The position numbers were made by a program, and so were the translations under genes. Source: an uncultured delta proteobacterium (GTDB lineage: Bacteria; Myxococcota_A; Polyangia; Polyangiales; Houyiibacteriaceae). Taken from it: a stretch of DNA of 64,000 bases. The notes under the pieces were generated by a model that saw nothing but the letters and a program-made list of their open reading frames with translations, ran no database searches and was not told where the DNA came from. The stretch lies in the NCBI GenBank assembly GCA_963699755.1, contig CAVOVB010000001.1, forward strand, positions 288,001 to 352,000, read 5' to 3'. Of this stretch, positions 38,432 through 54,580 are shown piece by piece. Each line of letters starts with the position of its first letter. The first letter of the stretch is position 1.

Positions 38432-40957
38432 CTAAAACTTCACGGTGGCCAAGACCTGGAAGTAGATCGGCCAGCCCGGAGTGAAATGGAGGTCCTCGCA
38501 ACCAGCAAAGGTGCCGTCCGGCTCGATGACGGCGCGGGTTCCAGTCGGGCAATCTGCGGGAATGTCTTCGCCCAGAAGACGTCCCGTGGTCGCAAACTGC
38601 GCTTGGCGCCACTTGGTGTTCAGAAGATTGAGCAGCTGCGCCTGCACGCCGAAGCGCCGGTTCTCCCAGCCAAAGGAGGCGTCGACCCGCAGAAACCCTT
38701 CGGCAGTCAGAAAGCGGTCTTCGGTGGCAGGCCGGTCGGCGATGTAAAAGAAGCCAAGGCGTCCCGAAAGCCCCGTGCGCGGATCGCGAGCCGTCAAGCC
38801 CCCGCTGAGCAGGACCTCTGGGGCGAGTGCAATGGCATTGGCGTTGCCTGGATTGTTTACGAACTCCGCCCGGACCCAGGTCGCATCGAGGTCCGCGAGC
38901 AACCAAGGCACGATCTCGAGACGGAACTGGGCTTCGAGCCCGAGTCGACGAGTTTGCCCGCTTGCTTCGGTGGTGCCCTCGTCGCCCACCCAGACTACCT
39001 CGCTGTCGAGGTCCAGCCAGAAGAAGGCCGTCGAAAGCTGCAGCCGATTCCATGCGATCACCCGTGCACCCAGCTCCCAACCGAGCGCTGCGGCGACTGG
39101 GGTCGCCGGATCGGCGCCCAGAACGACCCCGCGCGCATCGTTCGAGTGAAACCCGCGCCCGAAGTTGACGAAGAGCTCTAGCGGTTCGACTGGCTGCACG
39201 ATCAGGCTGGCTTTGGGTAAAAGGATCGCTTGGACCCGTTCGCCGCTGCTTTTGGTGCCTAGCGTGCTCCGGTCCTCGAGTTGGTCCGTCACGTTGAAGA
39301 CGAAGTAGTCGAAACGAAGCCCACCGACGAGCCGCAGCCATCTCCAATCGAGCTCTTCCTCTCCGAAGACCCCTATGTTTCCCTCGCCGATGTTGGCGTC
39401 CACGCGTGTTGAAGCGATCTCGCGTGCAGGCGCATCCTGCAGTGTGTTGTCGATGGCATCGAAGCGAAAGTTGGCGCCCATCCGCGACTTCAGCGTCACC
39501 CTGTCGAATCGATGGGTGAATCCGTACTTGGCCCGTAGGCCCAGGGCAGTGCGCTTGTCGCCTTGGCGGATCATGTCGCCGCTGACCGGATCGTTCGCAA
39601 AGTAGGTGAAGTTGGAATACAGTGCGAAGCGCGAGTGGATGAGCCACCCCACGAGGCTCAGCCCTTCGCCTCCGGTCGAGCGCTGCCCATGTGTTCCCGG
39701 CTTCGCAGGTGAGTCGAGGTTGAGGTATAGGCTGTATCGCTGGCTCTGCCCGCCCTCGTTCGGGTCGATGCTGCCAAAGCGGTCGAGACTACCGGCGCGT
39801 ACTGCTCGCAGCGGAATCTGTCCCGATGCGTTCCAGTCGTTGAGGTAGGCGGTGCCGGTGAGCGCTAGCTTTGTCTTGCCACGAAGGTCGAAGGTGGTTC
39901 GGGCGAAGATATTCGTGCGCAGCAAGCCCTCGGGATTCTCGAACGGTCCATCGGTGCCGAATACCTCGATGGCAAGGAGGGGCTTCACCGCATCGAGCTT
40001 GGGACTGATGATTCCGACGCCTCGAAAGCTCCGATACATGCCACCCCCGACGCTGAGGGAGCTGGTGGGCTCTTGGTTCTCGAGGACGAGATTGATCGCG
40101 CCAGCCGTCGCGAAGTCGCCGTATTCGCCATAGTATGGGCCTTTACGGACCTCCATCCGTTGGATCAACTCGGGGATGACGAAATGAAGGTCGGTGTATC
40201 CCTGGCCGTGTCCGTGACTGACCCAGTTGATCGGAACGCCGTCGACGTAGAATGCGACGTCCGTGCCGTGATCGCCGTCGAAGCCGCGAAGGAAGTACTG
40301 GTTGGCTTTGCCACCTCCGGCGTGCTGAATGGAGAAGAAGCCGGGGGCCGCGTTGAGAAGATCACCGCTCGAAATATATGGGCGGAGACGCAACTCCTGC
40401 CCCGTGAGATCGATCGAGGACGCGGAAATGTCGGACGGAGCCACGACTGCAGTCGCGCTGAAGCCCGTCTCGGGAGCGACATCTCCGGTGGCGGTCGTCT
40501 CGGGCTCCTCCTCGCTCTGGGTTGGCGCTGCATGAGGCTCTGCGGGCTCCCCCTCACCTAGTTGGTGTGGAGGATCGAACAAGACCTCGAACCGAACGAT
40601 GGCGGGTACGGGGATCCCATCACGTTTCGCTGGCTCGAAAGCCAAGTCGAGCACATACCGTTGTGCCAACTCGGAGAACTGCGCGGCTTGCTCCCCTTCT
40701 CGATCGACCGAAAGCACGTGCACCTCTTCGACCCGCCCCTCCGGGTCGATGCTGATCTGCAACAGCACATGGGCCGGCTTGCCGTCAGCGTCGGGCGGGT
40801 AGGACGGATGCAGCTGTGCGTCCGAACGGAGCGAGGGCGCTTCGAGCAGGGGTGAATCGGAGGGTGCCTGCGCGGCTTCTTCTTCCTGGGCGAATGCTGA
40901 ACCATGCACTGCCAGGCAAGCCGCAAGGGCGACCATGAGCTTTGAGAGTTCACGCAT
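38432..40957 (-). CDS. TonB-dependent receptor with N-terminal TonB C-terminal domain
   Basis: signal peptide; YPPDA..IDPEGRV..FEPAKRDG; plug QHAGGGKANQYFLRGFDGDHG, HGHGQGY; terminal Phe (TVKF). Confidence 0.92.
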   Translation of the reverse strand: MRELSKLMVALAACLAVHGSAFAQEEEAAQAPSDSPLLEAPSLRSDAQLHPSYPPDADGKPAHVLLQISIDPEGRVEEVHVLSVDREGEQAAQFSELAQRYVLDLAFEPAKRDGIPVPAIVRFEVLFDPPHQLGEGEPAEPHAAPTQSEEEPETTATGDVAPETGFSATAVVAPSDISASSIDLTGQELRLRPYISSGDLLNAAPGFFSIQHAGGGKANQYFLRGFDGDHGTDVAFYVDGVPINWVSHGHGQGYTDLHFVIPELIQRMEVRKGPYYGEYGDFATAGAINLVLENQEPTSSLSVGGGMYRSFRGVGIISPKLDAVKPLLAIEVFGTDGPFENPEGLLRTNIFARTTFDLRGKTKLALTGTAYLNDWNASGQIPLRAVRAGSLDRFGSIDPNEGGQSQRYSLYLNLDSPAKPGTHGQRSTGGEGLSLVGWLIHSRFALYSNFTYFANDPVSGDMIRQGDKRTALGLRAKYGFTHRFDRVTLKSRMGANFRFDAIDNTLQDAPAREIASTRVDANIGEGNIGVFGEEELDWRWLRLVGGLRFDYFVFNVTDQLEDRSTLGTKSSGERVQAILLPKASLIVQPVEPLELFVNFGRGFHSNDARGVVLGADPATPVAAALGWELGARVIAWNRLQLSTAFFWLDLDSEVVWVGDEGTTEASGQTRRLGLEAQFRLEIVPWLLADLDATWVRAEFVNNPGNANAIALAPEVLLSGGLTARDPRTGLSGRLGFFYIADRPATEDRFLTAEGFLRVDASFGWENRRFGVQAQLLNLLNTKWRQAQFATTGRLLGEDIPADCPTGTRAVIEPDGTFAGCEDLHFTPGWPIYFQVLATVKF

Positions 40958-41031
40958 GACGAATCGCCGAATCCACGGGACCCCAGAGGCCCCGCGACCC
41001 AAGTGAAAGGTTCGACTTCGAGGAGAACCCT

Positions 41032-41451
41032 TTAGGTGGGCGGTGCGCGCGCTCGCGTGTTCTCGGGTTGACAGTCGGCGGGCTGCTCGTCGTGTGTCAG
41101 AGGCGGCGGATCGGTCCAGCTTAGAAGCGCCTCTTGTACATCCGGAAGAGACGGAACCGGAACGTTCGCAGCAAGCTGCCCGTGCGCGATGCTCCCTTTG
41201 CCGTGATCGGACGGCGACTCGTGCTCGTCCTCGTCACCTTCGTGATGGTGAGCGTCCGCTCGCTCGTGGTCGTGGTCCCGAGGATGCTCGTGAGCGCTAC
41301 GATTTTCGTGTGCCCCATGATGGTGCGCACCGAACGCGCCATGAAATGCGACGTGTACCGTCGGCAGCAGCACGAAGCCAGCCAGCCACAGAAGGGACGC
41401 GAGCGCGGCGCCAAAGCTCTGATGACGGTTTCCGGAATGCCGAAAGGTCAC
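41032..41451 (-). CDS. His-rich DUF2946-like leader protein ending in a RAPP motif
   Basis: N-terminal TM segment, His/Asp/Glu-rich tract, C-terminal RARAPPT*. Confidence 0.75.
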   Translation of the reverse strand: MTFRHSGNRHQSFGAALASLLWLAGFVLLPTVHVAFHGAFGAHHHGAHENRSAHEHPRDHDHERADAHHHEGDEDEHESPSDHGKGSIAHGQLAANVPVPSLPDVQEALLSWTDPPPLTHDEQPADCQPENTRARAPPT

Positions 41452-42706: not shown

Positions 42707-45700
42707 ATGAAGGCCGCGGGTGCGATGCCGGTGTCTCGGGTCGAGCCGCTGCATGCGGTTGTTTCGGGCCGTCTGCGCGTTCGCGTTCGCGGACTCTATC
42801 GCTCCAGGCATCTCGCGTCCCGGATCGAGCAATCGTTGCGTTCGCACCCATCGATTCGGCGCGTGCGAGCGAGCGCACGCACCGGCAACGTTCTGGTGCT
42901 CTTCGACGATAGTCTGAGCTCCATCGACGTTCATCGGATGCTCGACTCCGCGCTCGACACAGCGGCGACCGAGGTGGTCTCACTGCGCAGGCGGCCTAGC
43001 CGTCTAGCCTCCGATTCCGGTTTCGCCCTCCTGTTCGCCGAGGCATGGCGGCGAGCCAGAGGTTTCCGGGACCGCGCAAACAACGACGACAACCGAGTGA
43101 TTCATGTCGCGTTCCCCCAAAACGATCTCCGTTGGTACTTGCGCACGGTCGATGAAGTCATCGAGTCATTCGAGAGCTCGAGCACGAACGGGCTTGCGGC
43201 AGAGAAATTGCCTGAGTTGCTCTCCCGCTACGGTCCCAATGCGTTGCCTCGGGCCGAGCCGCGAAGCGCGCTTTCGCTCATCGGTGCTCAGCTCAAGAGC
43301 CTCCCGGTCGCGCTGCTCGGAGTGTCCGCGGTCGTCTCGGTCCTCACGGGGGGCGTGCTCGAGGCAGGGGTCATTGGTGCCGTGGTCGTGACCAACGCCC
43401 TCATCGGATTCGCGACCGAATCTCAGATCGAGAGAAGCATTCGATCGCTATCGACGGTCACGGCGACGAAGGCTCGCGTGATTCGGGATGGGCAGGCGCT
43501 CGAAGTTGCCGCTGAAGAGATCGTTCCCGGCGACATGCTCGTGCTCGGCCGAGGTACTCGGATCGTGGCGGATGCTCGAATCGTGGAGACCTCGAGACTG
43601 GACGTGGACGAATCTGCGTTGACGGGAGAGAGCATCCCCGTGACGAAACAGTCGGCACCGCTGGAAAAAGAAACGGTGCCACTCGCCGACAGAACGAACA
43701 TCGTCTACAGAGGAACCTCAGTCACGGGCGGCAGCGGTCTCGCGGTCGTCGTTGCAACTGGTTCCGGTACGGAGCTCGGCCGCATTCAAGAGTTGGTCAG
43801 CCACGCAGGGCCACCGGAAACTCCGTCGCAACGCGAGCTCAGAGTGCTCGGCAATCAACTCGTTTGGGCGGGCGCCTCGGTCTGCGGCGCGATGTTCGGA
43901 ATCGGCATGCTTCGCGGCTACGGGTGGATGCAAATGGCACGCTCGTCGATCTCTTTGGCGGTCGCGGCTCTGCCCGAAGGTCTTCCAACGGTGGCGATGA
44001 CGGTTCTGTCTCTCGGAGTGCGCGATCTCCGCAAGCGCGACGCTCTGGTCCGTCATCTAGACGCCGTCGAGACGCTAGGGGCGCCCCAGATCATCTGCTT
44101 GGACAAGACCGGAACGATTACGCAGAACCGGATGTCCGTCGTATCGGCGCTCGCCGATGGCTGCCGGCAAGACTTCAGTGCCGATGACCTCGGCCGCGCC
44201 GAGGCTGCGCCGGCGTCGCTCGACAGCCCCGCTTTTCGCCGCATGCTCGAAGTCGCCGCGCTTTGCAACGAGGTCGCGCTCGAGAAGTCGGACAGAGGCT
44301 GGCGCCTCCATGGCTCGCCGACCGAGCGCGCGCTTATGGAGCTGACGCTCGCTCACGGCATCGACGTCGAGGTGCTGCGGGCGACGTATCCGATGGTGGA
44401 TCTGCAACTGCGTGCGGACGACCGAAACTACATGGTCTCGACCCACTCGCTCGGCGAAGGCAAGTCATTCTTCGCTGTGAAGGGCAGCCCGGATCAGGTC
44501 CTGTCACTCTGCGACCGGATCTATGATCAGGCTGTGGTGCGACCCCTCGACGAATCGGATCATGCCAAGGTCGAAGCCGAGAACGGCCAGATGGCGGGGC
44601 GGGCCTTGCGCGTTCTAGGGGTAGCGTACGGGGAGCACCCTGATTCCCTCGGAAACCCAGATCGCTACGTCTGGCTCGGCCTCCTAGGCATGACCGATCC
44701 GCCGCGCATAGGGGTGAAAGCGCTCATCGAAGAGTTTCACCACGCAGGGATCGACACTGTCATGATCACTGGAGATCAGAGCGCCACCGCCTATGCGATC
44801 GCAAAGGAGCTCAATCTCGGTCGCGACGGATTGCTCGAGATCCTCGACTCCACCCACATGGAGGAGGTCCCCCCAGAGGTGCTCAGCTCCTTGGCTCAAC
44901 GCGTCCAGGTGTTCTCGCGGGTGAGCCCAGCACACAAGTTGGAGATCGTCCAAGCGCTTCAACGGGCGGGGAAAGTCGTCGCAATGACTGGGGACGGCAT
45001 CAACGACGGCCCGGCGCTGCGAGCGGCGGATGTAGGCATTGCAATGGGCGCCACCGGGTCGGAAGTTGCGCGTGAGGTTGCCGACGTCGTGCTCGAGAGG
45101 GACGACCTAGAATCCCTGATCGAGGCGATCAGGCAGGGTCGAACGATCCACGACAACATCCGCAAGTCTGTGCACTTCTTGCTCTCGAGCAACACGAGCG
45201 AAATCCTCACGATGATGGGCTCGATCAGCGCCGGCCTTGGCGAGCCACTGACGCCGATCCAACTCCTCTGGCTCAACCTGATCACCGACATCTTCCCCGG
45301 CCTTGGGCTCGCCGTCGAACCGTCCGAACCCGATGTCATGGAGCGCCCTCCCCGGGGCTCTGACGACCCGCTCTTGCGTAGTGCCGACTTCGTCCGCATC
45401 CTCACCGAGGGCGCGCTGCTCGCGGGCGGCACTCTCGGCGGCTACGCTTGGGCGCTTCGCCGGTACGGCGCCGGACCGAAGCCAGCTTCCATCGCCTTCA
45501 TGACCCTCACGATCGCCCAGCTCCTACACGCCCTATCGTGTCGGTCCGAACACCGAAGCATTTTCGACCGGGAGCTGGGCCCGATGAACCTTCCACTCAA
45601 ATTGGGGGTCGGTGGCTCGCTCGCGCTCCAGCTGCTCGCTGGGGCGGTCCCCGGCTTGGGCCCGATCCTCGGACTCGGTCGCCTGCGCGCCCCTGACTGG

Positions 45701-45841
45701 CTGGCAATCGCCCTCGGAGCGGGCTTACCTCTGCTGACCAATGAGGCGCTCAAGAAGGGCGGATTGTGGAAACGCGAGTTTCACCCGGCATCGTTCGGAA
45801 CCGGAACCGTTGGCTCATCGCAGAGGAGCGTGCATCCATGA
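42707..45841 (+). CDS. P2A-type (Ca2+-like) cation-transporting P-type ATPase with N-terminal HMA2 domain
   Basis: HAVVSGRLRVR..TGNVLVLF; TGES; ALPEGL; DKTGT; KGSP; TGD; GDGIND; SSNTSE; LWLNLITD. Confidence 0.92.
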   Translation: MKAAGAMPVSRVEPLHAVVSGRLRVRVRGLYRSRHLASRIEQSLRSHPSIRRVRASARTGNVLVLFDDSLSSIDVHRMLDSALDTAATEVVSLRRRPSRLASDSGFALLFAEAWRRARGFRDRANNDDNRVIHVAFPQNDLRWYLRTVDEVIESFESSSTNGLAAEKLPELLSRYGPNALPRAEPRSALSLIGAQLKSLPVALLGVSAVVSVLTGGVLEAGVIGAVVVTNALIGFATESQIERSIRSLSTVTATKARVIRDGQALEVAAEEIVPGDMLVLGRGTRIVADARIVETSRLDVDESALTGESIPVTKQSAPLEKETVPLADRTNIVYRGTSVTGGSGLAVVVATGSGTELGRIQELVSHAGPPETPSQRELRVLGNQLVWAGASVCGAMFGIGMLRGYGWMQMARSSISLAVAALPEGLPTVAMTVLSLGVRDLRKRDALVRHLDAVETLGAPQIICLDKTGTITQNRMSVVSALADGCRQDFSADDLGRAEAAPASLDSPAFRRMLEVAALCNEVALEKSDRGWRLHGSPTERALMELTLAHGIDVEVLRATYPMVDLQLRADDRNYMVSTHSLGEGKSFFAVKGSPDQVLSLCDRIYDQAVVRPLDESDHAKVEAENGQMAGRALRVLGVAYGEHPDSLGNPDRYVWLGLLGMTDPPRIGVKALIEEFHHAGIDTVMITGDQSATAYAIAKELNLGRDGLLEILDSTHMEEVPPEVLSSLAQRVQVFSRVSPAHKLEIVQALQRAGKVVAMTGDGINDGPALRAADVGIAMGATGSEVAREVADVVLERDDLESLIEAIRQGRTIHDNIRKSVHFLLSSNTSEILTMMGSISAGLGEPLTPIQLLWLNLITDIFPGLGLAVEPSEPDVMERPPRGSDDPLLRSADFVRILTEGALLAGGTLGGYAWALRRYGAGPKPASIAFMTLTIAQLLHALSCRSEHRSIFDRELGPMNLPLKLGVGGSLALQLLAGAVPGLGPILGLGRLRAPDWLAIALGAGLPLLTNEALKKGGLWKREFHPASFGTGTVGSSQRSVHP

Positions 45842-47022
45842 CTCGAGACTTCCTGTTTACTTCCGAATCAGTGACCGAAGGTCACCCCGACAAGCTCTGT
45901 GATCAGATCAGCGATGCGATCGTGGACCGCTACCTTCAGCAAGATCCCTTCTCCACTCTGGTCGCCGAAACCGCGCTATCGAAAGGGATCGTGTTCATCG
46001 CATCGCACTTCTGCTCGAAAGGCACGGTCGACATCCCGGGGCTGGCGCGCGAGGTGATTCGGGACATCGGCTACGACGACGAAAGCTTCAACGCACGAAG
46101 CTGTAGCGTCATGACCAGCCTCAACGAGATGCCATCGCGCGCGGAGCCAACACCAGATGAGCGTGAGCTCGACGACGAAGCCATCGAGCGCATTGCCGTG
46201 ACCGAGCACGCAACGGTATTCGGATTCGCGTGCAAGCAGACCCCGGAGCTCATGCCGCTGCCGATCGTGGTCGCGCACGACTTGGCGAAGCGGCTTGCCG
46301 AAGCGAGACGCAAGGGTTCGACTTCGTACCTCAACCCGGATGGAAAGACCCAGGTCGGAATCGAGTACCTCGACAACCGACCACATCGAATTCACTCGAT
46401 CACGCTGGTGGCGAGTCAGAAGAAGGATGCCCCGAGCCTTTCCCGGTTGCGTGACGACCTGATGGAGCAAGTGATTAGGCCCGCATTCACGGGAAAAGAG
46501 CTTCGTCCGGATGCGGATACCACCATTTCCATCAACCCAGAGGGCGCGGTCATCTTGGGCGGTCCGACGCTTCACTCGGGCTCGACTGGTAGAAAAGTGG
46601 GGGTCGACACCTGGGGCGAGTATGCACGAAATAGCGGCTCGGCGATGTCTGGCAAAGATCCAACTCGAATCGACCGCATTGGAGTGTATGCGGCGCGACA
46701 CGCTGCGAAGAATGTCGTCGCGGCCGGTCTCGCAGATGAATGCGAGGTCCAGCTGAGCTACTCCATCGGATTGTCGCGCCCGGTCACTGTCCGGGCACGA
46801 ACGTTTGGCACTGGACGGATTTCGAATGCCGAGATCAGCAAGCGGATCGATGCCAATTTCGATCTTCGCCCAGGAGGGATTATTCGTGATTTCGAGCTGC
46901 GCTGGCTTCCGATTCAGCGCAAGCAGGACTTCTATCGGCGCTTGGCTAGTTACGGACAGGTGGGACGGCCGGAGCTCGACCTGCCCTGGGAGCGGACCAA
47001 CGCGGTGGCGCGGCTTTCCTAG
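45838..47022 (+). CDS. divergent methionine adenosyltransferase (MetK) paralogue
   Basis: FTSESVTEGHPDK, PDGK, TGRK, SGKD retained; GAGDQG and several substrate residues replaced; ATGA overlap with the ATPase. Confidence 0.88.
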   Translation: MTRDFLFTSESVTEGHPDKLCDQISDAIVDRYLQQDPFSTLVAETALSKGIVFIASHFCSKGTVDIPGLAREVIRDIGYDDESFNARSCSVMTSLNEMPSRAEPTPDERELDDEAIERIAVTEHATVFGFACKQTPELMPLPIVVAHDLAKRLAEARRKGSTSYLNPDGKTQVGIEYLDNRPHRIHSITLVASQKKDAPSLSRLRDDLMEQVIRPAFTGKELRPDADTTISINPEGAVILGGPTLHSGSTGRKVGVDTWGEYARNSGSAMSGKDPTRIDRIGVYAARHAAKNVVAAGLADECEVQLSYSIGLSRPVTVRARTFGTGRISNAEISKRIDANFDLRPGGIIRDFELRWLPIQRKQDFYRRLASYGQVGRPELDLPWERTNAVARLS

Positions 47023-47549
47023 GACTTGCCATCGCCGTCTTGTTCGTCGCCGTCTCGGTGCTGCCGGAGCAGACGCATCGCCTCTCCGAGCAAGGTGGGC
47101 CCCGACGGAAGGATCGAGCCTCGAAGGGCCTGGAGGACCGCCAACATGAACAAACCGGTGGCGGCCCGCTGAGGATTCTGGTCCATCCGGGCCCAGAGAA
47201 CTTCGGCGTCGAATCTGTCTAGCCGGTCGAGCCAATGGACGATGGTCTGCCTGGTGTCTTTCGGGGTTTCGCATCGAAACAGGCCAGCGGCTTCGGCGTG
47301 CTTCAAGAGCTCGGAGCAATCGCCGCGATGGAGGACCAGGATGCTGCCGGTGTTCGGATTCGTGGCAACCTCGAGCACCGAAACATGCTGCTCCAAAACC
47401 TGCTTCACCCCTTCGAAATAGGCCTCATCGCCGCGGCGCTCAGAACAGCGGACCCGAAAGCGACCAGTGCTTTGATGGCACAGGGCGGCCGTCGCCCTTG
47501 GTGGCGCCTCAGCTCGCTTGGCTTCGGTCTCTGGCGTCTTGCGTGGCAT
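47019..47549 (-). CDS. HMA2-domain membrane protein (FezC-like)
   Basis: HQSTGRFRVR..VATNPNTGSILVLH plus C-terminal hydrophobic LFMLAVLQALRGSILPSGPTLL. Confidence 0.75.
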   Translation of the reverse strand: MPRKTPETEAKRAEAPPRATAALCHQSTGRFRVRCSERRGDEAYFEGVKQVLEQHVSVLEVATNPNTGSILVLHRGDCSELLKHAEAAGLFRCETPKDTRQTIVHWLDRLDRFDAEVLWARMDQNPQRAATGLFMLAVLQALRGSILPSGPTLLGEAMRLLRQHRDGDEQDGDGKS

Positions 47550-47796
47550 CGCTCATCCCGGCTTCTTCAGCCATCTCGGCACTCACTTCCGCCATCAAGT
47601 CCTCCATGTCCTCGCGGAGCTCGGCGAGCTTTTCGACGCCGCCTTCGACGGCCCGCATCGTTCGCTTCAGGCTGGCTTTGACGAGGTCTCGCCGACGGCT
47701 GTCCGTCTGAGGGAGGAACATGGGAAGCAGTGAAGCCGCGGCAGCGCCAAGTGCAAATCCGATCGCCACGTCCCGAATCGAGATTGATTTTGCCAT
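47509..47796 (-). CDS. DUF5132/FezA-like small membrane protein
   Basis: AAGGAGG RBS; AIGFALGAAAA (GxxxG) TM segment; amphipathic LVKASLK..LAELREDMEDLMAEVSAE. Confidence 0.75.
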   Translation of the reverse strand: MAKSISIRDVAIGFALGAAAASLLPMFLPQTDSRRRDLVKASLKRTMRAVEGGVEKLAELREDMEDLMAEVSAEMAEEAGMSDATQDARDRSQAS

Positions 47797-47985: not shown

Positions 47986-50900
47986 TCAGTCCGAGCGGTC
48001 CAAGCTCGCTTCGCTTGCTGTCTGGTACCCAGGATCTCCTGGACTCTGGCGGGAAACGGCAGAGCGGGGATTTGCGGCACGATGTAGCAGGTACGGTGTG
48101 ATGGCCGCCGCCAGGAGAGACGCACCGGAAGGCGCGAGGACCTCATGGTGGCGCCCGGCAAGCCACTCGATACGGACCCCGTCTCGAACCAAGCGACCCC
48201 AGCCCAAGTCGGGTTCGTGTGGGCCTTCAAACGGATCGAGCTCCGTCCGGAAAAGCACGAGCTTCGCGGGGATCGTCTTCGGGCGATACTGCATGATCAA
48301 ATCGAGCTGGGCCTGCATGGAACTGAGATCGTCTTTCGAAAAATCCACCTGGGCGTGTCGAAAAAGCCCGCCGATGTCGTGGCGGTAGTGTCGTCCGAAC
48401 CAGCGAGCCGGAGCGCGGAGCGCGGCCTCGAGAACGCGCCCGGCCGACGCTTCGATCGAGCCTCTGTTTTCGCCAATCTCCCTCAGTCGCGCGGCCGTCG
48501 TCCGAGCCAAACGCCAAAGCCGCTTCGGACTCGTAAAGGGCGATGGAACGGGAATCGATGCAGGGGGCGTACCGTCCAATACCGCGAAGAAATCAACTTC
48601 GTGGCCGATCTCGAGGAGCTGCTCGGCGATGGCGAGAGCAACGATACCACCGGTCGAATACCCGGCAAGAGCATGAGGGCCTTCGGGCTGCGCCTTGAGA
48701 ATCAACTTGGCGTAGGTTTGCGCCATCGTATTAAGGCTGTCGCCCGCAACTTCGACATCGGTCAGACCCGGGGTCCGAAACCCATAGACTGGAATCATCG
48801 AGTCGAGGGCTTCGGCGAGATGGACGTAGTCCAGCGCAAGGCCGGTCACTCCAGGGGCGAGGAAAAGCGGCCGGACTGCTGGGTCTCCGGGCGCGAGCTG
48901 GACGATCGGCTCCTGACGCTCGACTTCGATGCCTTGACGGACCAACCGCGCAAGACCTTCCAAGGTGGGGTCGCGGAAGAACGCCTGCGCGTCGCATGAA
49001 CGGTTCAAGCGGCTCTCCACTTCGTTGAACAGCTGGACCACCAGTAGCGAATGTCCCCCAGCCTGGAAAAAGTTGATCGATGCGTCTGAGATCGGCTTCC
49101 CTAGCAGTCCAGTCCAGATCTCGGCGAGCTCCGTTTGGATCGGCTCATTCGGTGGGGCTGAGAGCTGGTCACCGAGCTGCGCGTCCTCGCTGAGGCGCGC
49201 GGCGGATAGGGCTTCGCGGTCAATCTTGCCAGCAGGAGTCTGCGGCAGCTCGTCAAGCGTCAGGATCCTCTTGGGGACCATGTGGCTTGGCAGCGCCCTC
49301 GAAAGACATTCGCGAATTCGGGGCAGGTCGACGAGATTGCGATCGCCGACGACGAAGCCGATGAGTGCTGCGTCTCCACCTCGATCTCTTCGTACCACGA
49401 CTGCGGCTTCGCTTACACCCGGGCATGACAACAGGTGTGCTTCCACTTCGCCGAGCTCTATACGAAAACCTCGCACCTTGACCTGCTGATCGACACGATC
49501 GACGTAAACATAGTTCCCGGCACTGGTCTGTCTCACGAGATCTCCGGTCGCGTACAAACGAGCGCCCTCGCGCCATGGGTGAGGGACGAAACGCTCGGCG
49601 GTCTTCTCCTTCTGCCCGAGATAACCGAGCGCGAGGGTGCAGCCCCCGATGTAGAGTTGTCCCACGACCCCTTGCGGAACCGGACGCATGTGATGGTCCA
49701 AGACGAAGTGGGAGACACCGCGGTGTGGACGTCCGATCGGCATCGCTGGATCCGGATCGCTTTGTCGATCATCATAGAAGGTGGACGTGATGGTGGTCTC
49801 AGTTGGACCATACGCGTTGATCCAGCGAATCCAATCGGTCCGAGCTTCACGAAAACGTTCATGGGCCTCGACAGAGGCCTGCTCTCCACCGACCACCAGC
49901 AAGCGAACGCACCGCGGCCAAGTCGCCTGCGCGCGGCTGTCCGTCAGCTTGTGCCAAAACGCGGTGGGCAGATTCAGGACCGTGAGCCGGTGTTGCTCCG
50001 CCGCGGCGAAGAAGCTCCGGCTCGTCTGCGCAAGCTCCCGATTTCGTAATACCAGCGTTGCGCCAGCGCAAAGCGTCGGAAAGATCTCTTCCAAGGAGAC
50101 ATCGAAGCTCAGCGCAGCAAACTGCAGAACGCGGTCCTTCGGAGTGAGTCGAAACACATCGACCGTCGTCATCGCATGATGGCTCAGAGCGCCATGGGTC
50201 AAACAGACCCCTTTTGGTATTCCCGTCGAACCTGATGTGTAGACGACGTAGGCGAGCGAGTCCGGGGCAACGGCCGGCGGGGCCGAGCTCGGGGGAGGCA
50301 CCTCCGGACTGAGCTGCTCGAGATCGACCACCGTCGCGCTGGTCCTCGGCATGCTCGAGCTCGCTCCGTTGACGAGAATGAACCTCGCTTTCGAATCATC
50401 GAGCATGAATGCGATCCGCTCGGGCGGATAGTCAGGATCGGCCAGCATGAAGGCCGCGTGCAGGTAGTGAGCTGCCAGCATGGCGACGACGGCCTCGATC
50501 GAGCGCGGGAGCAGCAAGGCCAGAAGGTCACCCTCCCTCACACCGCGCGCCTGGAGCGCGTGGGCCGTCGAGCGTATTCGCGATGCGAGCTCCGCATACG
50601 TCATCGAGCGACCATCCATCGCTTCGATCGCCGTGTGCGCTCCTCGAGCGTGCGCCTGATCGAGAATCCGCTGAAGCGCACTGATCTCCGGTGGTTCTTG
50701 CTCACGCTCGGCTTCTGCGGCGGTCAGTCTTTCATAGACCCCGCGGTCCAGCACTCGGAGGTCATGAAGCTGTGCGTCGGGATTGCATGCTACTTCAGAC
50801 AGCAAGCTCACGTAGTGCCGCAGGATTTGCTCGGCCTCGGCGGCAGAATACAGACCTGAATCGCGCTCGAGTTGCACGATGAGTGCCCCGGCCTCCATGA

Positions 50901-52074
50901 ACGTATAGAGGCAGAGCGGGTAGTTGGTGTGCGACCGTGACCAAACCTTGCGCGTCTTCCAGCGCTCGCTCAAGTCGCTGAGCCTGCCAGACAGACGCCC
51001 CGGTTCGAAGACGGTAAGGGTGCGGAACAATTCCTTCTTGCTGGATGCGCCAGTGGCAGCCTTGATCTGGTGAAGCGGGGTTTGCTGAAACGGGCGTCCC
51101 TCCAGGTGCTGTTGCCGGAGCGATCTCAGGGCTTCTTTGATCGATGGATCCCCGCTGAGATCCAATCGGATGGGAACGGTCGCGATGAAGAGTCCGACGG
51201 TTTGCTTCGCGCCTTCGATCGTCCCCGTTCGTCCCGACCAGGTGGTACCAAAGACGACGTCGTCTCGGCCCGCGTAGCGGGAAAGCAAGACGCCCCAAAC
51301 GAGCTGAGTCACCGTATTCAGACTGGCGCCGCATTCGTCTGCAAGTTTTTTCAAGCCCCGGCTCGTGGGGACATCGAGGCGTCGACGGTGTTCGACAACG
51401 TGCGAATCTCGAGATGCAATACGACTGTCGTTGCGAAGAGGGAGCTCGGTCGGCTCGGAGAATCCCTCCAAAAGGCGACGGAAGTGCTCCACGCCGGCCT
51501 GGGTATCCCGTTCGGCCGCCCATCGGATGAAATCAAAGTACGACGGCGCCGGACCGACAGGCTGAAGGTCGCCCTGATACGTCGAAAGCACGTACTCTAG
51601 CACCGAGGCGTAGGATCCACCGTCGATGAGGCAGTGGCGGACGGTCCATACGAAGCACCAGCGCGTATCGGACAACCTGAACACCGAAACTCGCATCAGC
51701 GGAGCGCGAAATAGATCGATACCTTCGCTCCGATCGCGATCAAAGAAGCTCGCAAGCATTTCGCGCTGCTCGGCTTCGGAGTGCTTTGTCCAGTCTTCGA
51801 GTCTGAATGGCAGGTCGACGCGCGGGCAAACCCTAACCAGCGGCTCATCGGGCTTGGGCCACTCGAACTCCAGGCGCAGCGCATCGAAGCGGTCGAGGGC
51901 GCTCTGCCATGCCGCTCGAAATCGCTCCGGATCGAGAGGATCCTCCAACTCGCAGACGACCTGCTCGATGTTGACCATACGCCCGCGAGCCAGGAGGCTT
52001 TCCGCCAGCATCCCCCTCTGCATCGGGGTGACCCTCAGGGCGACGGGCCGGTCGTGCTTCAATGCTCGCCCCAT
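47986..52074 (-). CDS. stand-alone monomodular NRPS (C-A-T-TE)
   Basis: C: TPMQRGML, RHCLIDG; A: YTSGSTGIPKG, NAYGPTE, LYATGD, QVKVRGFRIELGE; T: FFQAGGHSL; TE: GYSTG. Confidence 0.93.
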   Translation of the reverse strand: MGRALKHDRPVALRVTPMQRGMLAESLLARGRMVNIEQVVCELEDPLDPERFRAAWQSALDRFDALRLEFEWPKPDEPLVRVCPRVDLPFRLEDWTKHSEAEQREMLASFFDRDRSEGIDLFRAPLMRVSVFRLSDTRWCFVWTVRHCLIDGGSYASVLEYVLSTYQGDLQPVGPAPSYFDFIRWAAERDTQAGVEHFRRLLEGFSEPTELPLRNDSRIASRDSHVVEHRRRLDVPTSRGLKKLADECGASLNTVTQLVWGVLLSRYAGRDDVVFGTTWSGRTGTIEGAKQTVGLFIATVPIRLDLSGDPSIKEALRSLRQQHLEGRPFQQTPLHQIKAATGASSKKELFRTLTVFEPGRLSGRLSDLSERWKTRKVWSRSHTNYPLCLYTFMEAGALIVQLERDSGLYSAAEAEQILRHYVSLLSEVACNPDAQLHDLRVLDRGVYERLTAAEAEREQEPPEISALQRILDQAHARGAHTAIEAMDGRSMTYAELASRIRSTAHALQARGVREGDLLALLLPRSIEAVVAMLAAHYLHAAFMLADPDYPPERIAFMLDDSKARFILVNGASSSMPRTSATVVDLEQLSPEVPPPSSAPPAVAPDSLAYVVYTSGSTGIPKGVCLTHGALSHHAMTTVDVFRLTPKDRVLQFAALSFDVSLEEIFPTLCAGATLVLRNRELAQTSRSFFAAAEQHRLTVLNLPTAFWHKLTDSRAQATWPRCVRLLVVGGEQASVEAHERFREARTDWIRWINAYGPTETTITSTFYDDRQSDPDPAMPIGRPHRGVSHFVLDHHMRPVPQGVVGQLYIGGCTLALGYLGQKEKTAERFVPHPWREGARLYATGDLVRQTSAGNYVYVDRVDQQVKVRGFRIELGEVEAHLLSCPGVSEAAVVVRRDRGGDAALIGFVVGDRNLVDLPRIRECLSRALPSHMVPKRILTLDELPQTPAGKIDREALSAARLSEDAQLGDQLSAPPNEPIQTELAEIWTGLLGKPISDASINFFQAGGHSLLVVQLFNEVESRLNRSCDAQAFFRDPTLEGLARLVRQGIEVERQEPIVQLAPGDPAVRPLFLAPGVTGLALDYVHLAEALDSMIPVYGFRTPGLTDVEVAGDSLNTMAQTYAKLILKAQPEGPHALAGYSTGGIVALAIAEQLLEIGHEVDFFAVLDGTPPASIPVPSPFTSPKRLWRLARTTAARLREIGENRGSIEASAGRVLEAALRAPARWFGRHYRHDIGGLFRHAQVDFSKDDLSSMQAQLDLIMQYRPKTIPAKLVLFRTELDPFEGPHEPDLGWGRLVRDGVRIEWLAGRHHEVLAPSGASLLAAAITPYLLHRAANPRSAVSRQSPGDPGYQTASEASLDRSD

Positions 52075-52235
52075 CGCGGTCGAGTGTAGCCTCCAACGCT
52101 CAAAGGACCAGCTGAAACGGCGCCCACCGCCCTTAGTGTCATCGGGGCAAGATTGCCCGGGCACGCTCAGACGCAGGGCTAGTGTCCCTACAGTCGACGC
52201 GGGCACGGCATCTCAGATGGGTCGGGTTGTTGTGC

Positions 52236-54290
52236 TCAGATGCCATTGCCCGCGATCCCATCGCTCGCTTTGTAGTTCGTGACGGCCGCGTGCCGGAAGA
52301 AGTACTGGGTGGGAGATGGCGACCAGTTTGAGCTCCCAACCATGCCGAGGTGCGCATTGAATCTCGGAAACCCGTCGCGCCAGGTTTCAATGCCGGTTTG
52401 TTCCAGTGCCAGCACGCCATTGATGTAAACCCTCGAGAGGCCATCGGTTGCGCCTTGGCCCGATGACCGAACGTACTCGAGCTCCACTTCGACCCATTCA
52501 CCAAGAGGAACGGCGACAGTGCTGAGAACGCTGTCAGGCGTGGTGGAACCGAGCAACCGAAGCGCGGACCAATCTAAAAAGAGCTTCATCGTGCCCGCGC
52601 GATCGACCTCGAGGCTTGGCCAAAAATCCGCGAAGAGCGGGGCGCCCTCGTCCGTGGAAGGGGAAACGTCTAGGATCGACAGCCATGCCGAGCCGTCCCC
52701 GGTGAGCCTGTCCTCGAACAGGAACTCGGCGAACATGAAGATCGAGCCCTGATCCTCGAATTGCTTCTGTAGGTACGCATTGCGGTCGCGCCCGCCTCGA
52801 ATCAGTCGTCGCATGTCCGCGCTAGGTGCAACCGTTGCCTTCGAGTACCAGACCGGCTCTGTTCCCAACGGGTCGATTACCCTGTCGGTGGCCGGACCGG
52901 TCCAAATGTTGCAAGGGACGGGGGTTCCGATCGGCTGTTGGCAATAAGGGGATCCAGGGTACTGAGGCCGGCCCGACGGGGAGAAGTTGAAGCTTGGCGC
53001 GAAGAAGGCCCCGCTCTCGCTGCTCGCCCAAAAAACGAAGTCAGGCGGCGCTGCTCCAACGCCGGGGGCTAGGTCTTCCTCGTTCGCAGCGGTCCATCTC
53101 GTGTTGTCCCGAATCCAGTCTTCGAACGCCTCAACGCGCACCCAGGTTCCTTCAACACCCGGCGCACATTCACCGGAGCCCCGAGACGCAACGCCCGCAA
53201 TCCGGGGTTTGCCGTCAACGAACGCATAGAGCGGCCCGCCGGAGTCACCGCAACAAATGGATCCGCCTTCGATGAGGAAGCCACGAAATATTCTGTCTCC
53301 GAGCAGTGAGACGTATTGATTGCCTTCATACAACTCTTTGATCGGGCCAGCCCCGGCATTGTCGCCGTAACCGTGCGCGAGAAGCTCCGTGCACATCGGC
53401 GCCATCGAATCCGTATGCGGATAGGCGGCATAGGGCTCCGGCAGATCTACGCTCGTGTAAATCAGCATCAGGTCTGCGCCCGACTCTGATGTGCTTGCGG
53501 TTGGCGGATCGGCGGGTACCGGCCCCACGTCCGGGTGCAACCTGAAGCGATCGGACACGGCGATCACGGGCGCCGTGTCAAGTGGTTCCGTGTGGACATC
53601 GTGCCAATCGCTAGCCGGGTTCAGACAGTGCGCAGCGGTCAAGAGCGTGCGCGGGCTGATGATCGTTGCCGTGCACGAGCCGGAGGCGAGATTCATCCAC
53701 TCAACGCGGGCAGAGCTGATTCTATCCGATGCGATGGTGCATCCGCACATCCTGGGAACTGGACCACCTGCGGCGGGGTCCATCGCCCCCGCGCAGAAGA
53801 GGCCGGTGCCGGTCTGACCGCCGTCGCCTCCGATGCCACCTTCTCCGCCCTGGCCGCCTGTGCCGATCTGACCGCCGATTCCTCCAGTGCCACCTTCTCC
53901 GCCGTAGCCACCGGTGCCGGTCTGACCGCCGTCGCCTCCGATGCCACCTTCTCCGCCCTGGCCGCCTGTGCCGATCTGACCGCCGATTCCTCCAATGCCA
54001 CCTTCGCCGCCGTAGCCGCCGGTGCCGGTCTGACCGCCGTCGCCTCCAGTGCCACCTTCTCCGCCGTAGCCACCGGTGCCGGTCTGACCGCCGTCGCCTC
54101 CAGTGCCACCTTCTCCGCCCTGGCCGCTTATGCCACCCTCACCTCCGATGCCACCTCCGCCGCCGGTGCCGCCCTGACCGGCGATACCTCCGCTGCCGGC
54201 CGTTCCCCCGCTTCCACCGCTACCAGTGGTATCACCACACGCGACCAGGCCTAGCGCCAGCACGCACATCAATCCGCGCAAGTAACCCAT
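52236..54290 (-). CDS. lipoprotein with Gly linker, trypsin-like S1 protease and C-terminal beta-sandwich domain
   Basis: lipobox LVAC; TAAHC, ADLML, CGDSGGP; C-terminal GEWVEVEL..VYINGV (LamG/lyase-like). Confidence 0.88.
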   Translation of the reverse strand: MGYLRGLMCVLALGLVACGDTTGSGGSGGTAGSGGIAGQGGTGGGGGIGGEGGISGQGGEGGTGGDGGQTGTGGYGGEGGTGGDGGQTGTGGYGGEGGIGGIGGQIGTGGQGGEGGIGGDGGQTGTGGYGGEGGTGGIGGQIGTGGQGGEGGIGGDGGQTGTGLFCAGAMDPAAGGPVPRMCGCTIASDRISSARVEWMNLASGSCTATIISPRTLLTAAHCLNPASDWHDVHTEPLDTAPVIAVSDRFRLHPDVGPVPADPPTASTSESGADLMLIYTSVDLPEPYAAYPHTDSMAPMCTELLAHGYGDNAGAGPIKELYEGNQYVSLLGDRIFRGFLIEGGSICCGDSGGPLYAFVDGKPRIAGVASRGSGECAPGVEGTWVRVEAFEDWIRDNTRWTAANEEDLAPGVGAAPPDFVFWASSESGAFFAPSFNFSPSGRPQYPGSPYCQQPIGTPVPCNIWTGPATDRVIDPLGTEPVWYSKATVAPSADMRRLIRGGRDRNAYLQKQFEDQGSIFMFAEFLFEDRLTGDGSAWLSILDVSPSTDEGAPLFADFWPSLEVDRAGTMKLFLDWSALRLLGSTTPDSVLSTVAVPLGEWVEVELEYVRSSGQGATDGLSRVYINGVLALEQTGIETWRDGFPRFNAHLGMVGSSNWSPSPTQYFFRHAAVTNYKASDGIAGNGI
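53803..54126 (-). repeat. 54-bp tandem repeat x6 (GGEGG[T/I]GG[D/I]GGQ[T/I]GTGG[Y/Q])
   Basis: CTGACCGCCG recurs every 54 bp from 53814. Confidence 0.88.
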
Positions 54291-54580
54291 GAAGACCTTC
54301 CCGGGCGAAATCGCTCGCTCCAACCCTCGTCACATCAGTCAATTGGGGGTGCCAACGAGCGTGGGCAATACGTAATTGTTAACCAATGACTCATACGAGC
54401 TCTTTGCACCACGTGACCGCTCGAGAAAAGATCGCGCCAATCCTGCCCGCACGCGGCAGACCGCCGCCTCGAGCGCGGCTGATTCTCTATCAAAGCGTCG
54501 AGGCGATCGGCCCGAGCTCGGCGGCTAGCTGATCGAGCGGGCAGTCGGCTTGGGTGCAGGCATTCAATTTCACGGCGAGC

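Follow-up and report, generated by a model that had tools for sequence, protein, structure and literature searches.

An accessory MetK paralogue translationally coupled to a P2A cation pump has very probably given up S-adenosylmethionine synthesis

We analysed a 64,000-nucleotide stretch of contig CAVOVB010000001.1 (positions 288,001 to 352,000; hereafter the window) from an uncultured delta proteobacterium (assembly GCA_963699755.1). It encodes a paralogue of MetK, the methionine adenosyltransferase (MAT, EC 2.5.1.6) that makes S-adenosylmethionine (SAM). The paralogue keeps all triphosphate, Mg and K ligands of MAT, has a methionine pocket of reversed charge and follows the gene of a P2A cation ATPase. 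We conclude that SAM synthesis has very probably been lost in this protein. The reading that we favour, with a probability of about 0.45, is that of a neofunctionalised MAT-fold hydrolase of triphosphate, short polyphosphate or nucleoside triphosphate (NTP), which would keep the second half-reaction of MAT and act as a partner of the pump.

The paralogue is encoded by an intact, full-length frame, as an earlier note made from the sequence alone had proposed, with 394 codons, a TAG stop and no internal stops. The ATG at 45838 was chosen as the start over a GTG at 45766 because homologues begin with M-K/T-x-D-F. All three MAT Pfam domains are found (PF00438, PF02772 and PF02773) and identity to canonical MetK enzymes is 39-45%. 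On TIGR01034, the metK equivalog model, the protein scores 375.3 bits and passes the cut-off of 309.4, while the canonical copy of the same genome family (G093) scores about 590 bits. The AlphaFold2 (AF2) model has the MAT fold with a predicted local distance difference test (pLDDT) score of 88.8; compared with MAT structures over its whole length it gives template modelling (TM) scores of 0.85-0.90 in Foldseek, and against 5h9u a Z of 48.2 and a root-mean-square deviation of 2.2 over 379 residues. Its clusters in the ESM Atlas carry MAT names only. Low model confidence at residues 251-272 was considered as a sign of a destabilised site and rejected, since canonical MetK folded in the same way is also low there, a monomer artefact. 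A genome of the same genus carries these four genes in an identical arrangement, at 63-82% identity, and on this ground an assembly artefact or contamination (the genome is 9% contaminated) was likewise rejected.

Residues were called by alignment with the E. coli MetK from NC_000913.3, and family positions are given in E. coli numbers. Family counts omit gapped rows and are compared with 54-56 canonical rows; they include 46 metagenome rows retrieved with a pattern containing His238 and therefore partly selected on that site. The triphosphate, Mg and K ligands of MAT are H14, D16, E42, K165, R244, K245, K265 and D271, and the phosphate ligands are contributed by both subunits. Kept in the paralogue (its own numbering in brackets) are H14 (H16), D16 (D18), E42 (E44), D163 (D168), K165 (K170), R244 (R252), K245 (K253), K265 (K273) and D271 (D279). 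Across the family, E8 (214/219), D16 (217/218), E42 (217/218), R244 (224/224), K245 (223/224), K265 (224/224) and D271 (223/224) are near-fixed, and D163 is kept in 215 of 220 members; K165 (193/221) and H14 (213/218) are less fixed than R244, K245, K265 and D271. Because the phosphate ligands from both subunits are near-invariant, the dimer is presumably retained.

The other half of the active site has been rebuilt. In MAT, as described in the parts of the articles drawn on here and below, the amine of methionine is bound by D238 and E55, its carboxylate by Q98 and K269, and its side chain by I102; D238 also contacts the ribose, as does D163, and F230 lies at the adenine (PMC3853416). S99 is also among the adenine contacts (PMC1282579), as is R229 (PMC3853416, PMC1282579). 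In the paralogue, the methionine site is changed from E55 to H57, Q98 to M98, D238 to H246 and K269 to R277, and the motifs GAGDQG and HGGGAF read AVTEHA and NSGSAM. Among the adenosine contacts D163 alone is kept, S99 being replaced by P99, I102 by A102 and F230 by V238. Given the ribose role of D163 and the adenine contacts of F230, S99 and R229, the change covers the adenosine site besides the methionine site. Both acids that hold the amine are now basic, and the methionine pocket is thus charge-reversed, not merely lost.

These substitutions are conserved in orthologues, which speaks against simple decay. The D238 site is His in all 178 homologues picked by identity, an unbiased count, and in 223 of 224 members once the metagenome rows are included. 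The E55 site is Arg in 176 and His in 36 of 218 members, and the K269 site is Arg in 221 of 224. Further sites changed in the family are Q98, S99, I102, G115-D118, G120, I246, G258, G260 and F262, with Asn mostly found at D118 (142/216); the family sites counted above, kept or replaced, are 95-100% invariant across the canonical rows, and those of the residues called in the earlier note 98-100%, which is more than chance would give. The loop at 98-118, which replaces the gating loop, averages 25.8 residues and a net charge of -4.3 in the family, against 20.8 residues and -2.9 in canonical enzymes. Deep-branching members depart at single ligands, with K165 changed to Gln and a shorter loop in L138 and L139, and D271 changed to Glu in L152; all three are still pump-linked and have His238. 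Every retained and replaced residue listed in the earlier note holds in our alignment. Its claim of a selective loss of the methionine site stands as far as the methionine ligands are concerned, but the adenosine site has been rebuilt too and the pocket reversed in charge rather than emptied. The replacement of F230 that it reported is true of this protein and not family-wide, Phe being found in 114 of 224 members.

Mutagenesis by Taylor and Markham reportedly found that D118N and D238N cost E. coli MetK far more of its SAM synthesis than of its tripolyphosphate (PPPi) hydrolysis, a result that we do not count as evidence. The human MAT sites D258, K289, S114 and the gating loop we take to be positions altered in the paralogue family, with the human-to-E. 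coli numbering assumed. In the human enzyme, SAM synthesis is lowered or abolished by D258G, by K289N, by S114A and by changes in the gating loop, with phosphatase activity unchanged, S114A alone nearly abolishes adenosyl transfer, and the two activities depend on different elements (PMC6850014). The MAT mechanism has two steps, with PPPi cleaved between the beta and gamma phosphates (PMC8638259).

The paralogue is an accessory gene of patchy occurrence, present in 2 of 61 genomes of this genome's own family and in 10 of 121 cyanobacterial genomes (11 copies). The window's genome has a separate canonical metK at C2:645355-646476, with the GAGDQG, MGD-type and HGGGAF motifs intact. Among the 50 carrier genomes searched (50 of 60 loci), 48 have a canonical metK alongside the paralogue, at 56-65% identity to this genome's canonical copy; in the other two (G006 and G025), both draft assemblies of unstated completeness, only the paralogue was found. 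A quick IQ-TREE places 67 family rows on one side of a branch and 22 canonical rows on the other (SH-aLRT 100), and a FastTree that includes cyanobacterial and same-genome canonical copies separates 31 family from 53 canonical rows with support 100. Both trees are midpoint-rooted, without an archaeal-type outgroup, and in neither does the paralogue branch among canonical MetK. Carriers belong to Cyanobacteriota, Nitrospirota, Thermodesulfobacteriota, Myxococcota, Pseudomonadota and Ca. Binatota, with one Actinomycetota bin, and on the evidence of these trees the family appears to be one clade over at least six phyla. No paralogue match was obtained among 72,556 plasmid records at E 1e-100. The ratio of non-synonymous to synonymous substitution rates (dN/dS) comes to 0.067 when the same-genus copy is the partner and to 0.03-0.12 for five further pairs, with one more pair saturated, and mean column identity is 70% over 79 family members.

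The paralogue nearly always directly follows a pump gene. The stop codon of the P2A ATPase overlaps the start of the paralogue as ATGA (gap -4), in line with the translational coupling to a cation pump read from the window earlier. All 61 family genome loci (60 besides this one) have such an ATPase immediately upstream, and none of 22 canonical loci does; the median gap is -1, and 47 of the 61 gaps are of 30 nucleotides or less. In an independent metagenome set the pump is directly upstream in 36 of 39 family loci with at least 300 upstream bases and in 0 of 34 canonical loci, 7 further loci being too short upstream to count. Across the 121 cyanobacterial genomes, every one of the 11 paralogue copies has such a pump gene before it, and of the 13 pumps of this kind 11 have the paralogue behind them.

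The best NCBIfam models of the pump are P2A calcium types, below their own cut-offs. The motifs DKTGT, PEGL, N..E in transmembrane helix (TM) 5 and N...D in TM6 are found in 53-54 of 54 pumps, which also carry Q..H in TM8 and the family motif LEILDST in the P domain. The N-terminal head matches HMA_2 (E 2.8e-5), with H, G, R and R invariant in 20 of 20 sequences and no CxxC in the consensus. This head is basic, and its invariant His and GRxR (HxxxGRxR) correspond to the CoBaHMA signature, defined by an invariant His in strand beta0 and basic residues (PMC8890360). We found no report in the literature of a bacterial P2A pump with a dedicated soluble partner. In RNA runs from a cyanobacterial carrier, contigs cover the module at a depth like that of the flanks, and library DNA is possible, so that these runs give no sign of expression or co-transcription. 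The pump link is loosened in a cyanobacterial sub-branch (L135:8001-11503 and L197:4635-9542), and a second paralogue copy in one genome (G020) is preceded by a pump split into two frames.

Relatives of the module are enriched in phosphate-starvation genes and Pho-like boxes. Of 106 family loci, 11 contain genes of the pst/phoU type (6 among the 60 from genomes, 5 among the 46 from metagenomes), and none of 54 canonical loci does (Fisher p 0.016, overstated because the loci are related and not independent). Pho-type 11-bp tandem dyads are found in 18 of 84 module upstream regions and in 6 of 149 upstream regions of canonical loci, and shuffled module upstream regions give a mean of 3.2 and a maximum of 8. 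The dyad pattern recovers the E. coli pstS, phoA and phoB boxes as well as the clear boxes before this genome's own pstS-like and phoB genes (G000:C1:936681 and 945061). Other genes in family loci have a dyad in 37 of 232 cases, as in a Pho-rich neighbourhood; they include pst promoters and are not a neutral control, and the canonical loci were used instead.

From these observations we propose that the protein would keep the Mg2+/K+-dependent cleavage of a terminal phosphoanhydride and would have given up SAM synthesis. Likely substrates would be tripolyphosphate, short polyphosphate or the gamma-phosphate of an NTP, and the former methionine pocket, lined by Arg/His55, His238 and Arg269, may form an extension of the anion site. 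The paralogue would be the dedicated soluble partner of the CoBaHMA-headed P2A pump, with the HMA_2 and DUF5132 proteins encoded next to it organising the pump in the membrane, and in many hosts the module may belong to the phosphate-starvation response. Most simply, phosphate would be freed from cation-polyphosphate while the pump moves the released Ca2+, Mn2+ or Mg2+. Several observations lead us to this reading: the phosphate and metal ligands are near-invariant while the methionine and ribose ligands D238, E55, Q98, K269 and I102 are all replaced; human changes at these sites cut SAM synthesis and spare the phosphatase (PMC6850014, under the numbering assumed above); and a canonical metK co-exists, the pump linkage is fixed, and pst genes and Pho dyads are enriched in relatives. 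The dimer, the hydrolase activity and its substrate, the ion and direction of transport, and a physical contact with the pump are inferred.

The earlier note had preferred a new function to decay, which the conserved substitutions, purifying selection, separate canonical metK and fixed pump linkage support. It had offered three options, namely a hydrolase supplying phosphate for cation mineralisation, adenosyl transfer to another acceptor and a nucleotide-sensing pump subunit, and these lie in the right field. Gene context does not favour phosphate supply for mineralisation: in relatives the module accompanies genes and boxes of phosphate starvation, for which salvage of phosphate together with export of the cation is at least as good an explanation.

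Several observations weigh against the hydrolase. The relaxed K165 and H14 suit a binder as well as an enzyme, the retained ribose ligand D163 may point to nucleoside binding, and archaeal MATs make SAM with a rebuilt pocket, so that a rebuilt pocket need not mean lost SAM synthesis. The linkage has exceptions: a dehydrogenase gene lies in between in L120, L148 is a fragment, and L135 has no pump upstream and, downstream instead, a shortened pump-like gene of 657 residues without DKTGT. Pumps without the paralogue also occur, in L198 and in the cyanobacterial L186 (L186:1-3153, a CoBaHMA-headed P2A pump). As to phosphate, the two upstream regions of this window contain no Pho-type dyad, even with one mismatch allowed, and its module has no pst gene nearby; across the family, 66 of 84 upstream regions lack a strict dyad and 95 of 106 loci lack a pst gene, in addition to the relatedness of the loci stated above.

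Some of these points would suit a regulatory subunit, which binds ATP, pyrophosphate, polyphosphate or phosphate with little turnover and switches the pump in response to the cell's phosphate or energy status, for instance by letting go of the basic CoBaHMA head, which the acidic loop in place of the gating loop could catch. We regard this as possible, if doubtful. The one-to-one translational coupling with its short gaps is what such a subunit would call for, as are relaxed K165 and H14 beside fixed R244, K245 and K265, the longer and more acidic loop, and pump motifs peculiar to the family, among them LEILDST in the P domain. Against it, the two Mg ligands and the K ligand are near-invariant, as for a catalyst, and the pump of L186 has no paralogue. 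Transfer of an adenosyl (nucleosidyl) group to another acceptor, to give a signal or cofactor for the pump, is improbable and the weakest of the three options of the earlier note; Arg55, His238 and Arg269 would hold the acceptor, for instance an amine-free thioether acid or some other anion. D163 and the catalytic H14 are largely kept, and three basic residues stand where the carboxylate and amine of methionine bind. However, neither the contacts S99, I102 and F230 nor the gating loop are conserved, the single change S114A nearly abolishes adenosyl transfer in the human enzyme (PMC6850014), and no recurrent biosynthetic or SAM-using neighbour was found among 47 hand-picked neighbour proteins scanned or in the neighbour clusters.

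A second SAM synthetase, rewired in the manner of archaeal MATs, we consider very improbable. The protein passes the TIGR01034 cut-off, archaeal MATs make SAM with His and Asn in the E55/Q98 region holding the methionine carboxylate (PMC8727953, PMC3853416), and only the paralogue was found in G006 and G025. But archaeal MATs keep the Asp equivalent to D238, here His, so that no acidic residue is left for the amine; nearly all carriers keep a canonical metK, the two exceptions being drafts; and a SAM synthetase would have no reason to be tied to one pump. A decaying metK duplicate would account for the patchy presence and for single broken copies (L148 and L149), and it is refuted by the low dN/dS, the conservation of the family and its new invariant residues. 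We also consider, as an unlikely further reading, that the module is a P2A counterpart of the ferrosome, building an undescribed calcium- or manganese-polyphosphate compartment or membrane platform in cyanobacteria, Nitrospirota, Desulfobacterota, Myxococcota and Pseudomonadota, with the MAT-fold protein as its polyphosphate-processing subunit. The phosphate chain would then be threaded through the former methionine pocket and its turnover coupled to cation pumping.

Two small genes complete the module (table). The 176-residue protein has no Pfam match itself and its homologues match HMA_2. The 95-residue protein has an N-terminal membrane helix with GxxxG (GFALG) followed by an E/A-rich helix; DUF5132 reaches E 2e-13 in a homologue and gives 30 matches in the first locus set, this one included. 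Both genes lie downstream on the other strand here and upstream in the same operon in most relatives. The paralogue and the HMA_2 gene are convergent, with both TAG stops on the palindrome CTAG at 47019-47022, a layout shared with the same-genus genome (G093, L200) and with L022, L054, L062 and L076. In 25 of 61 loci the HMA_2 gene and the pump are separated by a gene for a protein of about 230 residues without a Pfam family (L007:4168-4860 and homologues), which was not found in this genome with the query used. In 8 of 61 loci, mostly from Nitrospirota, a small DUF3562 protein (L040:2001-2282 and homologues) is encoded immediately behind the paralogue. CorA, MgtE, a Na/Ca exchanger, PhoH and phosphatases occur as single neighbours in family loci.

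Features of the module and altered active-site residues in the window
Feature	Position	Strand	Basis
P2A (SERCA/PMR1-like) cation ATPase, 1044 residues, N-terminal cysteine-free HMA_2/CoBaHMA domain	42707..45841	+	stop/start overlap ATGA
MetK paralogue, 394 residues, MAT fold	45838..47022	+	open frame, Pfam, TIGR01034, AF2 model
His57, E. coli E55 site	46006..46008	+	family Arg 176/218, His 36/218
His246, E. coli D238 site, family signature	46573..46575	+	His 178/178, 223/224 with metagenome rows
Arg277, E. coli K269 site	46666..46668	+	family Arg 221/224, His 3/224
HMA_2/CoBaHMA protein, 176 residues, weak C-terminal hydrophobic segment (FezC-like build)	47019..47549	-	Atlas HMA_2 0.92
DUF5132-like protein, 95 residues, FezA/PacL-like build	47509..47796	-	Pfam DUF5132 E 6e-4, below cut-off

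Other genes of the window stand beside the module. Directly upstream of the DUF5132 gene is a stand-alone one-module non-ribosomal peptide synthetase of 1406 residues (condensation, adenylation, carrier and thioesterase; 47986-52206, minus strand), not seen adjoining the module in other loci. A lipoprotein-like trypsin-family protein (52236-54323, minus strand) has long Gly-rich repeats and an extra C-terminal domain without a Pfam match. On the other side, a TonB-dependent receptor with an N-terminal TonB_C domain (38432-41451, minus strand) is preceded by a His-rich protein of 139 residues without a Pfam match, possibly a metal uptake pair.

Few enzymes are as conserved as MAT, whose fold is taken to have a single function. 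If our reading is true, a clade found in several phyla would show the two half-reactions of MAT separated in nature and would be a clear example of neofunctionalisation; polyphosphate processing in a ferrosome-like compartment would be the first non-SAM chemistry for the fold. Because it scores above the curated metK cut-off, the paralogue is named methionine adenosyltransferase in databases and is counted by metabolic models as a second SAM synthetase, which it probably is not. The module ties together calcium-type pumping, ferrosome-like scaffold proteins and phosphate starvation, and is directly testable since cultured carriers exist (Chlorogloeopsis fritschii, Nostoc spp. and Nitrosospira).

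Compared with MetK (E. coli 1RG9, 1XRA), the paralogue has the same fold and all triphosphate, Mg and K ligands. It differs by the change of D238 to His, E55 to Arg or His and K269 to Arg, by replacement of Q98, S99, I102, GAGD and HGGGxF, and by forming a separate clade, accessory to canonical metK and tied to a pump. Judged by its methionine site, it would not be a SAM synthetase, though fold and site are the same. The archaeal MATs of T. kodakarensis and P. furiosus resemble it in a His in the E55 region and a rebuilt methionine pocket (PMC3853416, PMC8727953), but keep Asp at the D238 site (Asp283 in TkMAT; PMC3853416) where the paralogue has His, and are their cell's SAM source, whereas the paralogue is bacterial-type in sequence. 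No description of the family or module was found in the literature searched, in which subscription journals are poorly covered and supplements, with a possible listing under the database name, lie outside; this widespread MAT variant tied to a pump is apparently undescribed.

The module as a whole has its closest likenesses among pump-associated scaffolds. The fez clusters of ferrosomes, bodies of iron, phosphorus and oxygen, share with it a P-type ATPase whose head is R-rich/HMA-like, a FezA-like membrane protein that has GxxxG and a FezC-like HMA protein with a membrane segment, a likeness of build in the parts of that account used here (bioRxiv 10.1101/2020.01.10.902569). Their pump, FezB, is however P1B-6, whereas the best models, PEGL, N..E and N...D make the pump here P2A, and no iron genes recur near the module; the word methionine is absent from the main text of that paper, which thus describes no MetK-like member there. 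PacL/CtpC platforms likewise encode a small membrane protein with an E/A-rich helix together with a P-type ATPase, but combine DUF1490/DUF6110 proteins with P1B pumps, where the module has DUF5132, a P2A pump and a MAT-fold partner (PMC9374683). In the main text of the Microcystis paper on the calcyanin (ccyA) neighbourhood, MetK, adenosylmethionine and P-type are absent. That neighbourhood, as far as the sources drawn on describe it, has CoBaHMA and DUF5132 proteins beside a calcium transporter, as in the module, with a Ca/H exchanger accompanying calcyanin in place of the P2A pump (PMC8890360; bioRxiv 10.1101/2024.07.07.602159; 2025.12.07.689555).

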